From assembly GCA_050250255.1 (NCBI GenBank), contig JBFWOZ010000002.1, positions 1 to 64,000 of the forward strand: a stretch of 64,000 nucleotides of DNA. The letters are read 5' to 3'. This document shows, one piece after another, positions 55,520-61,089 of this stretch; within the stretch, counting starts at the first letter, position 1; each line of letters opens with the position of its first letter. This DNA comes from Bdellovibrionales bacterium (GTDB lineage: Bacteria; Bdellovibrionota; Bdellovibrionia; Bdellovibrionales; DASUEL01). The position numbers were made by a program, and so were the translations under genes. Under the pieces are notes generated by a model. It saw only the letters and a program-made list of their open reading frames with translations, was not told the DNA's origin and made no database searches.

Positions 55520-56968
55520 TCATGAGATCATCATGCGGCTTAAAATATAGCTTACATATTTATACAAAGGCGATGGATATATTCCAAGCGTAATAACAAA
55601 AATGAGCAGGGAATAGCCGATTATATTGTCTATATAAGATGTTTTGTTTTCTGCAGTGACCTTCGGCGAAAAATCATCGAAGAGTTCACCCAACACACTG
55701 ATCAATGAAATCATAAGTGATGCGGCGCAAATCACCGGCATCAATTGCAGCCAGAGGATTTTTTGTGCCCCTTGTGCCGTCGATACAATTAGAGAAAAGC
55801 CCACAAATGTTCCGAGTGGACTGAAAATGATAAATAGAGCAAAGAGTTGGAGGCGTTGAAAAAAGCTCGCGGCCCTTAACGCAAGGCGTCCGCCATCTGT
55901 GCTTTCAAAAGGTTTCAAATCTAGGGCCATAAAGATTTTCAAAGTGAGTGGCACCGCGATTGTATAAAGAAAAAGTCCCGCCACTCCCTTTAAAAAGGAT
56001 TCTTTTGTTCCCGAAGACAAACTCCATAAAGTGAGGAGGAGGGGCTGAATCGAATAAATTTGAAAAATCTGAGCCATGTTTTTTGCAAACAACGTTTGCA
56101 CGAGCACAAAAGCGGCCATCAACCCGAAAGCGACAACCGGTAAAAGCGTTACGAGAAATCCTTTAAATGGGACGAAGGTGTCGGCCTCCCACGAACCTGC
56201 CATAGAAAGAATCCATCGACAGATCATAATCGCCCCCAGCAACGGAAGCGTCTGGCGGAAAAGCCCAATGAGTGTCCAGCTGTCGGCCTTTTCGTAGTCT
56301 TTTGCAAAGAACGTAAAAACTGGAAAGCAAAGGAGACTGCAAAAAAGAACAAGCGGTGCGCCCCACCCCAAAAGCGAGGTTGTTGTGAACCCTTTTTCCG
56401 AAAGCGCTTTTTGAATTTGATCAAATCGTAGAGTTTGGAGCTCTTGATAAATCAGACCACTTGAAAGCGCAAGAATCAGCAGAACAAGTGCTGCCCACGA
56501 AATTCCGTGGTTCATAGAGATAGATGCTTTCGATTTATAGGCAAGCTGAGGAGCAAAGGCGACCGTCAGGATGAGAAGCGGAAGCGCGAGGGTTACCACA
56601 AGCATATGGTTTGAAAAAATCAAAACCAGCGAGAGAAAGGCGATGACCAACTGAATGGCCGCAAGCTCTCTTTCATAAGAAATACGATCTCGGTAAAGGT
56701 TGAGATGGTTCAACAGAAAATAGATGAGCGTCATCAAAGCGAAGACGAGCTCAGACCCATCAAATGAAAAATAATTTTTTTCAGTAAGAGGAATTTCTAA
56801 TGGGGAAGCGAGGAGAACTATATGTCCTAGATTGAGTAGCAACAAAAGGAGCACAAAAAACTTTTCTCGTTTGCCGAGAGCAATTTCGTTTTGTCGCGAA
56901 ACGGCCATATAGCAGAGCAGGCCTAAGAAAAACGCCATCATTCCAAATCCCTGAGGCCAAAGTGTCAT
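55520..56968 (-). CDS. highly divergent NuoN-like membrane protein
   Basis: Colinear with NuoN: IFSNHMLVV ~ IWANDLLVM; CFPVFTFFAKDYEKA ~ IFPFHVWTPDVYQGA; AKNMAQIFQIYS ~ QENLKRMLAYSS; C-terminal LGIYPSPL. Confidence 0.65.
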   Translation of the reverse strand: MTLWPQGFGMMAFFLGLLCYMAVSRQNEIALGKREKFFVLLLLLLNLGHIVLLASPLEIPLTEKNYFSFDGSELVFALMTLIYFLLNHLNLYRDRISYERELAAIQLVIAFLSLVLIFSNHMLVVTLALPLLILTVAFAPQLAYKSKASISMNHGISWAALVLLILALSSGLIYQELQTLRFDQIQKALSEKGFTTTSLLGWGAPLVLFCSLLCFPVFTFFAKDYEKADSWTLIGLFRQTLPLLGAIMICRWILSMAGSWEADTFVPFKGFLVTLLPVVAFGLMAAFVLVQTLFAKNMAQIFQIYSIQPLLLTLWSLSSGTKESFLKGVAGLFLYTIAVPLTLKIFMALDLKPFESTDGGRLALRAASFFQRLQLFALFIIFSPLGTFVGFSLIVSTAQGAQKILWLQLMPVICAASLMISLISVLGELFDDFSPKVTAENKTSYIDNIIGYSLLIFVITLGIYPSPLYKYVSYILSRMMIS

Positions 56969-56977
56969 ACTTTTCTC

Positions 56978-57982
56978 CTACACCATAAACCGCGCGGCGA
57001 GCGCAAAGAGGATGGACATCAAGAGCTGAACCGACGCCCGAGAGCCCAAAGCGAATGTTTTTATTTGCACTCCTGAGGAAGACTCTGGCGCCGACGGAAG
57101 ATATACGATCCAAGCCATAATACCCACCATGAATACCACCGACGTCCACAACAACGCGCCCACTGTAGATTGAGACGAAGCTAAATAAACGGCCATTAAC
57201 ATACTCCAGAAATATCCGCCCCCAAGAGCACCCACTTCCCAACGGCGAATCAGGCCGCTAAGATTTTTAAATTTTTCTGGAACGATATGAGGAAACAGAG
57301 TGGTCATCGCGGCAAGATAAACCCAAAGAAGCAACACCTCAGGTTTATGCCCTTGGGTGTTGAGAGCCATGACCAGAATACATTGAGTAAAGATGGCCTG
57401 ATGAACTAGCGCCCACGAAATATATTTTTTCAAAAAAATGCTGAGAAGTATCGCCGCCATAGAAAAAAATGAAAATTCATAAGCAAATCGCTCAAAGAGT
57501 TCGTAGTGATAAATATTTAACGACTGAGCGACCGTCCAGAAAATAAAACTTACTCGCAGCCAGGTCTGTTGGAAGACAATGACCTTCTCCAGGCTATCGT
57601 TATGCTGAGGAACTATTGCAAAAAGCAACATTGGTAAAAAACTAAAGGCTAACGAAAGGTAAATTCGATGCTCAATTTGTACGAGCGTGTTGAGGCCAAG
57701 CGCCGGCTGCAACAAGCTCACCGTCACGAGCACCGCCATGACGATCGCGATAATCATTTTCTGTACTCGACCCCTTGTGTAGAAAGAGGTCGCGATAATA
57801 ACCATGAGCGCTTGCACAAGATAAAAAGCAAAATCAAGATAGGCACTATCCGCATACCAAAAAATACCAACACCAGCCCCGATGGCCGCCACCATGAGCA
57901 AGCTCACCCAAAAATGAAGTCCTCTAGCTAGAGCCAATAACCAAATACTTCCAATTCCCAAAACCATCGCCTGAATTGTCAT
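56978..57982 (-). CDS. polytopic membrane protein in NuoM position (very divergent)
   Basis: ~10 hydrophobic helices; ATGA overlap with the upstream gene; assignment rests mainly on position. Confidence 0.45.
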   Translation of the reverse strand: MTIQAMVLGIGSIWLLALARGLHFWVSLLMVAAIGAGVGIFWYADSAYLDFAFYLVQALMVIIATSFYTRGRVQKMIIAIVMAVLVTVSLLQPALGLNTLVQIEHRIYLSLAFSFLPMLLFAIVPQHNDSLEKVIVFQQTWLRVSFIFWTVAQSLNIYHYELFERFAYEFSFFSMAAILLSIFLKKYISWALVHQAIFTQCILVMALNTQGHKPEVLLLWVYLAAMTTLFPHIVPEKFKNLSGLIRRWEVGALGGGYFWSMLMAVYLASSQSTVGALLWTSVVFMVGIMAWIVYLPSAPESSSGVQIKTFALGSRASVQLLMSILFALAARFMV

Positions 57983-59893: not shown

Positions 59894-59902
59894 TACTCAC
59901 TC

Positions 59903-60772
59903 CTACGTCATAAGCTTCATCCACCACATTCCTGCGAAGCACAAAAATGTAATGGGGTAAATGGTGGCAAGCATGATTTTTTCGAGCTGGTCCCGGCGCA
60001 GAACCGGGAAGTGTTTCCAAAAAATGTCTGTCAAAACATAAAGCAAGAGAACTTTCGAGATTAAAAATATAAAGTGGCTAAGGCCAGGCAGTGCATTGGA
60101 GTTACAAAAAATCATGACAACTAGTGTGAGCCACGTCAGAGAAAATAGATGGTCCACAAACACATCGAGACTAATGAGTTTTTCATTTTTCGAAGAGGAG
60201 CTTTTAAAAAACGTAGCGACAAAAATTCCCAGTAAAAACGCGACAAAATGAAATGGACTCGACAGAAAAAGCCATTCTCTTCCTAAAAAATCATTTAATT
60301 CACCAGGTGTTTGACCTAAGGCGGCTCCTAAAAACAAAATCAGCACAATCAACGCCCGAGTTGTGAAATAAGTGATGTGATCAATCGATGTCTCAGAGAA
60401 TTGTGGTCCCGTTGCTTTCCAAGAGGCAATAATGTGAATGGCACATGAGATGAGCGTTAAAATCATTAAAACGAGATGTGGGTTCTCAACTTGTAAGCCC
60501 CGCTCTCCATTGATCGGGAAAAGTGCTAAACATGTCACCTGCAGCGAAAGCACCACCAAAAACGGCAGATCCCTTTTTATATTCACCCGCAGGCGAGACA
60601 AAAGCAGAAGCCATCTCAAGGGAAGCTGCTGCACTCTGTGAAGACCCGTTTTGGAAAAGCTAAGACGTGGCAAAATAGAAAGACTGAAAAGACTTCTTAG
60701 AAGGGTCATGACCACTAAAAAGAGCACGGCCCAGAGAGTTGGAAAAATGGCAGACAGGGCTGATGACATCAT
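59903..60772 (-). CDS. divergent NuoH-like membrane protein
   Basis: ISKVLLLYVLTDIFWKHFPVLRRDQL ~ VLKVAFFLWFFIWIRWTLPRFRYDHL; WLFLSSPFHFVAF ~ WGIFFQPVGFVLF; IIASW ~ LMAGW. Confidence 0.65.
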   Translation of the reverse strand: MMSSALSAIFPTLWAVLFLVVMTLLRSLFSLSILPRLSFSKTGLHRVQQLPLRWLLLLSRLRVNIKRDLPFLVVLSLQVTCLALFPINGERGLQVENPHLVLMILTLISCAIHIIASWKATGPQFSETSIDHITYFTTRALIVLILFLGAALGQTPGELNDFLGREWLFLSSPFHFVAFLLGIFVATFFKSSSSKNEKLISLDVFVDHLFSLTWLTLVVMIFCNSNALPGLSHFIFLISKVLLLYVLTDIFWKHFPVLRRDQLEKIMLATIYPITFLCFAGMWWMKLMT

Positions 60773-61089
60773 CTCCTTACTCCCAACTCACGGATGAAGT
60801 AAAAAAATGACATAATTGCGGTAATTAAGAAGAGTGTAAAATAGAGCATATCCGTAAAGGCCAACGGCTCCTTTTCCACAATCAACATCAGAAAGGTTGG
60901 AAAAATAAAAAAACTCATCATTCCAACAGCCATAATGAGAAGCGGTGAGTGAAAGGTGCGCTCCCCGCGACTTTCTCGTGATTTTTTTTCGACAATGGCC
61001 GTCGTCCTTTCTGAAAGAAAACGTAAGCTCAGGCTGAAAAGGAGCCAAAAACCCATCGCAATGAAAAAACTAGTAATTATCGAAAACAA
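60769..61089 (-). CDS. divergent NuoA-like 3-TM protein
   Basis: TM-loop-TM-TM layout; C-terminal FFYFIRELGV ~ LFYVWRNRGL; first gene of the array; ATGA overlap with the next gene. Confidence 0.5.
   Translation of the reverse strand: MFSIITSFFIAMGFWLLFSLSLRFLSERTTAIVEKKSRESRGERTFHSPLLIMAVGMMSFFIFPTFLMLIVEKEPLAFTDMLYFTLFLITAIMSFFYFIRELGVRR

Follow-up and report, generated by a model that had tools for sequence, protein, structure and literature searches.

The window analysed here, a 64,000-nucleotide stretch of contig JBFWOZ010000002.1 from a Bdellovibrionales bacterium, carries a canonical operon for the membrane arm of complex I (nuoA-H-J-K-L-M-N) and, between this operon and an mfd-like gene, a block of seven further genes, here named A', H', J', K', L', M' and N' after the canonical genes whose order they mirror. 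An earlier note, made from the sequence by itself, had described seven consecutive minus-strand open reading frames (ORFs) of 106, 289, 131, 81, 428, 334 and 482 amino acids (aa), and all seven are open at these sizes. The ATGA overlaps at 60769-72, 59262-65 and 57979-82 and the 47-base-pair (bp) gap to nuoA can also be read directly in the sequence; H'-J' and M'-N' are separated by 9 bp and J' and K' overlap by 10 bp. Open frames of at least 250 aa cover 84% of the block; when two-base words were shuffled 200 times this cover never exceeded 17%, and the seven-ORF block is real, far beyond chance. The proteins total 1851 aa, against 2424 aa for the canonical membrane subunits. The content of guanine plus cytosine (0.43-0.45) is unremarkable, no terminator-like site was found in the 47-bp gap, and promoters and terminators were counted about as often as in shuffles (17 vs 17.6 and 27 vs 20.4). 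The features of the locus are as follows.

61146..64000, plus strand: mfd-like gene, divergently transcribed, synteny anchor (ORF; named by sequence inspection, no family scan)
60769..61089, minus strand: A', NuoA-like, 106 aa (ORF with three hydrophobic segments; assigned mainly by position)
59903..60772, minus strand: H', NuoH-like, 289 aa (profile match; most conserved of the seven)
59498..59893, minus strand: J', NuoJ-like, 131 aa (profile match to NuoJ)
59262..59507, minus strand: K', NuoK-like, 81 aa (position; weak NuoK match of sister-order copies)
57979..59265, minus strand: L', 428 aa, in the NuoL position (position only; fastest-changing of the seven)
56978..57982, minus strand: M', 334 aa, a shortened antiporter-like protein in the NuoM position (match via sister-order copies)
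55520..56968, minus strand: N', NuoN-like, 482 aa (profile and Atlas structure match)
48181..55472, minus strand: canonical nuoA-H-J-K-L-M-N (Pfam and NCBIfam matches; key residues present), starting 47 bp downstream of N'

The nuoA loci were compared for 53 of the 55 relatives with a NuoA match, families being given as codes f1-f38. The block lies between mfd and nuoA in eight of the 53 (six from f3, one each from f9 and f12; one copy is cut by a contig end; K' of G012 was recognised in a separate comparison), 44 are without it and the last gives no information. Of the 44 relatives without the block, 40 have mfd directly adjoining nuoA. In the sister order (f14) all seven genes are present in G267, G289 and G290, L' is missing from G288, and G291 has only N', at a contig end. 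The synteny check that the earlier note had proposed shows the block in both orders.

Homology of the seven proteins and their partner set

Scans against Pfam and NCBIfam matched none of the seven block proteins to a Nuo family, whereas all seven canonical neighbours were matched; since the membrane genes are invisible to these libraries, similar sets may be missed elsewhere. Comparison of the block proteins with the window's own Nuo proteins using phmmer gave no significant match among the matches listed. The 'residual motifs' said to link the block to its neighbours therefore carry no statistical signal alone, and homology emerged from profiles of relatives and from the Atlas. The profiles were compared all-against-all, the six wrong partners of each protein serving as controls. 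H' matched the NuoH profile (98.3%, expectation value (E) 1.4e-13, 286 columns), J' the NuoJ profile (74.7%, E 3.2e-6) and N' the NuoN profile (99.9%, E 6.7e-32). An Atlas feature search with H' gave PF00146 in 23 of 30 matches, and the Atlas model of N' has a template modelling (TM) score of 0.84 over 461 residues to PF00361/NuoN models; a sequence search of the Protein Data Bank with the N' profile gave 0 matches.

The remaining proteins are more distant. M' of the sister order matches the antiporter-like family, with the NuoN profile as its best partner (76%, E 2.7e-6, 227 columns), and the pooled M' profile reaches 14% only. For pooled A', NuoA is the best of the seven profiles, at a weak 4.7% (E 0.0025). 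NuoK is the best match of sister-order K', again weak (9.5%, E 9e-4), and the pooled K' profile does not pick it, while the L' comparisons picked no partner among the Nuo profiles. The AlphaFold models of L' and M' are poor (predicted local distance difference test values of 44.7 and 52.2), and a fold search with this poor M' model gave no match at E <= 0.001. Both proteins are 170-210 aa shorter than their canonical counterparts and neither can be aligned to the antiporter cores. Judged from these comparisons, the proposed homology to the Nuo arm is firm for H', J' and N' and indirect for M', and it is weak or positional for A', K' and L'.

Among the top Atlas feature matches are unnamed clusters of NuoH size for 59903-60772 (427 members, mostly Pseudomonadota; 53 members, Chloroflexota) and, for 55520-56968, NuoN-size clusters with partial Pfam coverage. 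Given these clusters, other degenerate complex I-like sets may exist.

The genome of the window has two NuoB and two NuoD matches and one NuoF. On its contig C5 the order is nuoB-CD-E-F-G-I, followed by four genes, B', C', D' and I'.

Contig C5 88743-89231: B' (NCBIfam)
Contig C5 88475-88774: C' (weak match, 1.8%)
Contig C5 87402-88481: D' (NCBIfam)
Contig C5 86947-87417: I' (NCBIfam)

The start of B' overlaps the nuoI stop codon (TAATG), a translational coupling to nuoI within the nuoEFG operon. As judged by gene content, B'C'D'I' and the seven membrane genes complete an 11-subunit set without NuoEFG, here called the stripped set. An insert of the B'C'D'I' type is present in seven of the eight block carriers (no NuoB match was obtained for the eighth, G029). 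G001, G042 and all five f14 genomes have it too. Among the 44 relatives without the block, B' was found in three only, all of family f8. The stretch of I' ahead of its first Cys motif is 26-32 residues long in this trio and 47-78 in the other 11, and this loss of the membrane-side N-terminal segment supports the pairing of the two gene sets. Since the trio keeps B'D'I' and no block was found there, the iron-sulphur (Fe-S) module can apparently outlive the membrane arm. A relocated block was not found in G008, G037, G044 or G042 with N' or H' profiles, in a search of limited sensitivity (positive controls reached only E 0.004 and 3.7e-10; G042 is 85% complete and has no nuoA match).

In G037 (L077:8940-11027) and G044 (L078:8586-10664) the B'-D'-I' cluster has moved off the canonical operon; D' there has an N-terminal extension, maybe a fused C', and the canonical B-CD genes are not followed by nuoEFG. 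In G042 (contig C29, L072) the canonical nuoF, G and I are 41, 29 and 34% identical to those of the window genome, compared with about 75, 58 and 72% in other carriers.

Both halves of the set thus lie inside canonical operons, with B' on the nuoI stop codon and N' 47 bp before nuoA with no terminator-like site between them, an arrangement that would suit a partner of canonical complex I in its structure or maturation: a template for Fe-S loading, a scaffold for assembly, or a stabilising or regulating pseudo-protomer. The 331-aa ORF that follows I' (G000:C5:85974-86969; L065:6975-7970, minus strand) might be taken in the same sense: it has no Pfam or NCBIfam match, a NifS-like aminotransferase structure matches it weakly (E 0.015), and it is possibly a NifS-like pseudoenzyme. 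This ORF is present in 36 of 61 genomes, most of them without the system and often just after the peripheral nuo operon, and so was rejected as a dedicated subunit. Its distribution, the displaced clusters of G037 and G044 and the 44 informative relatives that keep nuoA without the block all speak against the partner role, which is unlikely though a serious contender. The last of these points makes the essential assembly scaffold raised in the earlier note unlikely in particular.

Residues kept and lost

The Fe-S ligands of the stripped set are retained. B' keeps four Cys residues (including the tandem CC; ligands of cluster N2) and I' two four-Cys motifs, and all 12 Fe-S cysteines are present in 14 of 14 sets. 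In D', by contrast with the canonical copies, which have them in 20 of 20, the quinone-site residues H224, Y273 and D325 (E. coli numbers, identities checked) are missing in 14 of 14. The N2-side R270 is kept in 10 of 14. The net charge of the insert in I' is mostly positive, as it is in the intact second copies described below, and mostly negative in canonical ones. C' is 64-116 aa long and both NuoC C-terminal motifs are missing in 15 of 15; NuoC's C-terminal loop contacts NuoG, according to PMC3144371. With these docking motifs gone and one NuoF in the genome, the set has no NuoEFG of its own and differs in this from 14-subunit complex I.

In the membrane arm, N' has no charged residue at the mapped positions of E133, K247 and K395 in 10 of 10 (posteriors 0.46-0.57, a moderate certainty), and K217 and H305 were not aligned. 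H' has no aligned counterpart of the NuoH acidic loop E216-E228, nor A' of NuoA D79/E81. From these alignments the pumping residues are absent where alignable. The earlier suggestion of a non-pumping alternative arm holds to that extent; its corollary, that the block borrows the canonical peripheral arm, is not supported, since a B'C'D'I' set of its own exists. Lys30 of K' maps to the position of NuoK E36; 10 of 13 copies have a basic residue there, which may be a reversal of charge within the membrane.

Because N' and M' belong to the antiporter family and a few charged columns are conserved (e.g. K' K30 and N' R251), the seven proteins could be thought a stand-alone ion transporter of the Mrp, Ech or hydrogenase-4 type, which the earlier note had named as a potentially better match. 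The Mrp antiporter is encoded by the MrpA-G gene set without NuoH and has intact charged residues in MrpA and MrpD; the block, in contrast, includes a NuoH-like gene, lacks the central N' residues and gave no Mrp match above noise. Ehr and the group 4 hydrogenase-related complexes, like Mrp, have a complex I-like membrane module, with hydrogenase-type small subunits and intact antiporter residues. Ehr and its group 4 relatives resemble the stripped set in pairing Fe-S subunits with a catalytically empty large subunit; the stripped set differs in its NuoB-type B' (tandem CC) and in keeping the full Nuo gene order. Group 4 NiFe hydrogenases proper (Ech, Hyc, Hyf) carry two CxxC pairs of NiFe ligands in the large subunit (PMC3144371), whereas D' is without CxxC in 13 of 14 sets and has a single internal CxxC, with no NiFe ligand pairs, in the other. 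A stand-alone transporter is very improbable on this evidence.

Selection and distribution in the class

Evolutionary rates were taken from two same-genus pairs, G034/G025 and G049/G055. Synonymous sites are saturated in both pairs while the proteins are 54-98% identical, so that most values of omega, the ratio of nonsynonymous (dN) to synonymous (dS) change, are not estimable. For G034/G025 the identities are 98% for B' and I', 94% for D', 93% for H', 83% for N', 79% for M', 74% for K', 72% for J' and 62% for L'; for G049/G055 they are 92% for B', 83% for H', 66% for K', 65% for N', 64% for A', 61% for J', 59% for M' and 54% for L'. B', D' and I' match canonical B, CD and I in conservation (94-98%). 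Where omega is estimable, B' and D' have values of 0.02-0.04, and J', K' and N' of 0.04-0.26. Among the seven membrane proteins H' is the most and L' the least conserved in both pairs. This ranking suggests that constraint is highest at the Fe-S/NuoH junction, and is as expected if function sits there, H lying near this junction in the complex I arm and L far from it.

A canonical-gene tree (A, H, M and N) indicates that the system is ancestral to the class and was lost at least three times. Together with the deletion of L' in G288 and a dN roughly fivefold higher for the membrane proteins than for the canonical ones (0.159 vs 0.031; 0.28 vs 0.057), these losses could point to a relic in slow decay, kept by entrenchment or lag. 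Against decay stand the frames, open in every carrier examined across two orders, the canonical-like conservation of B', D' and I', and their low omega; a relic is accordingly quite improbable, and the selection proposed in the earlier note is borne out by open frames and by proteins conserved despite saturated synonymous sites.

Of 221 genomes of the class, 12 were matched in a survey with the D' profile at E <= 1e-45, a cut-off chosen after the NuoD matches of the phylum had been seen, with seven of the 12 matched genomes already in the profile. By family, D' was found in 5/5 genomes of f14, 4/4 of f3, 1/1 of f12 and 1/2 of f8, and in the window's own genome; there was none in f11 (99 genomes), f6 (69), f2 (18) or f13 (10). 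Two small f9 genomes, G009 and G020 (98% and 91% complete), have no NuoA or NuoB match, while G029 of the same family has the block.

Origin and proposed role

Outside the order, most genomes of the phylum have two NuoD matches. Twenty second-NuoD loci were taken from the top scores and spread over families, further loci being added later, and three layouts were seen. In the first (f22, f18, f19, f30, f16) full-length A-H-J-K-L-M-N genes lie ahead of the canonical copy beside mfd, with a separate B-C-D-I cluster. These intact second clusters (G172, G166 and G073) share with the block its place beside mfd, its gene order, the separate B-C-D-I genes and the NuoI insert, and are unlike it in having all pumping residues (3/3 tabulated) and quinone residues in 7/8. 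In the second layout (f25, f31, f32, f35, f36, f37, f21, f26) a clearly homologous 11-gene A-B-C-D-H-I-J-K-L-M-N operon directly precedes the canonical one; it is without NuoK E36 and E72 (8/8), NuoM E144 (8/8) and NuoA D79 and E81 (5/5), and NuoD H224 and D325 are missing in 10/10, counting G061 (f15), whose genes are laid out differently. The window's genome shows the third layout, the stripped form.

In trees of B, D and I the 12-14 stripped sets form one clade (100 in the Shimodaira-Hasegawa-like approximate likelihood ratio test), and the canonical copies fall with those of Bacteroidota and E. coli, separate from the intact second copies. A clade of stripped and same-class canonical copies was rejected by the approximately unbiased (AU) test (p-AU 6.5e-8). 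The spacer between the NuoI clusters is 38-41 aa in stripped copies (14/14) and 40-43 aa in intact second copies (7/7), compared with 28-30 aa in canonical (20/20) and 22-29 aa in degenerate full-length ones (9/9). Stripped profiles also prefer intact over canonical copies (160 vs 106 bits for D', 87 vs 43 for I'; B' has no preference), and from the spacer and these scores descent from the intact second complex is inferred. The block makes most sense as the orthologue of a distinct, EFG-less 11-subunit complex found beside mfd across the phylum, in which pumping was probably lost twice independently. A recent tandem duplication is rejected by the AU test, the trees and the spacer; these, with the B'C'D'I' set, also tell against the ancient whole-arm duplication of the neighbouring operon that had been proposed.

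Very probably, then, the set is a disarmed orthologue of EFG-less complex I that is under selection, and this descriptive claim is firmer than any mechanism. For the latter we favour, at a probability slightly below one half, a non-pumping, membrane-tethered relay of three Fe-S clusters that would exchange electrons with soluble carriers. The seven membrane proteins and B'C'D'I', probably derived from the second, EFG-less complex that is still intact in other classes, are predicted to assemble into one 11-subunit complex with three 4Fe-4S clusters loaded in B' and I'. A soluble carrier such as ferredoxin would deliver electrons at the basic NuoI insert, to be passed on or sensed at the NuoB cluster, with neither proton pumping nor the usual quinone reduction, and the membrane subunits would serve as a tether that is eroding from its far end (L'). 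The window genome encodes three small ORFs of 2Fe-2S ferredoxin size and a 2-oxoacid:ferredoxin oxidoreductase.

Several points weigh against this reading. The oxidoreductase does not track the system (7/14 carriers vs 26/47 others) and was rejected as a dedicated donor, and the coupling of B'C'D'I' to nuoI would suit a role with canonical complex I just as well. Most families have lost the system. L' is identified by position and the A' and K' matches are weak; the Atlas structure search with H' returned no NuoH, and a rough tally of buried charges fails to tell H' or N' from their canonical counterparts (6 vs 4, 6 vs 5). Both the trees and the AU test can be biased by long branches, and in the trees the stripped clade comes out beside degenerate full-length copies rather than beside the intact ones that share the NuoI insert. 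Assembly and activity of the set are predictions from its genes.

The complete Fe-S wire and strongly conserved H', and an ancestor that would have been a quinone reductase with intact motifs (7/8 intact-type NuoD), could alternatively suggest an uncoupled donor:quinone bypass, in which the NuoB cluster reduces quinone through an opened cavity without pumping. This is improbable, given that the quinone His, Tyr and Asp are missing in all 14 D' and that B'D'I' is kept in three f8 genomes where no membrane block was found.

Complex I-like enzymes of 11 subunits that have no NuoEFG (PMC3144371; Desulfitobacterium, PMC11238625) have, as far as profiles and position assign the subunits here, the same A, B, C, D, H, I, J, K, L, M, N set as the block plus B'C'D'I', and like it have no N-module of their own, NuoB-type tandem cysteines and no NiFe ligands. 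They keep the quinone site and the pumping module (PMC11238625), both of which the stripped set has lost where alignable; it differs further in its shortened membrane subunits and a NuoC about halved. For the degenerate form no description was found in the literature covered (most subscription papers lay beyond it), in line with the earlier note. The accessible part of a Peredibacter study describes two nuo clusters, of 7 and 14 genes, suggests transfer and mentions no degenerate form (PMC13147790), and the nuo operon of Bdellovibrio has been called 'split' (PMC4758237). Two paralogous sets in one genome, as here, are described in PMC4453560, where they are two predicted enzymes and where Bdellovibrio and Bacteriovorax have 0 occurrences in the accessible part.

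A broader and still more tentative proposal is that of a whole-complex pseudoenzyme: an 11-subunit complex I that would have lost pumping and quinone chemistry twice independently in the phylum, and been kept since before the two orders split as a membrane-docked Fe-S redox sensor or relay coupled to canonical operons. Complex I homologues are usually assumed to conserve energy. An Fe-S wire and NuoH-like dock kept as tightly as in the real enzyme, with the catalytic residues gone, points to a new, non-pumping role. If this is true, the series within one phylum (intact, pump-dead full-length, stripped, Fe-S module alone, lost) would separate structural from catalytic parts of complex I and make the roles of its subunits directly testable.

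Some minor observations concern other second copies. In G082 (f26, L219:7265-13814), from another class, the 11-gene copy has shrunk near to block sizes (H 269, M 327, N 454 aa), a possible case of convergent erosion. A metagenome scan gave one 2-kb locus. In f32 and f37 (L094, L095, L099, L103) an extra antiporter-size gene of 447-488 aa with a weak match to NuoN (9.5%) lies between L and M, reminiscent of '2M' complexes.

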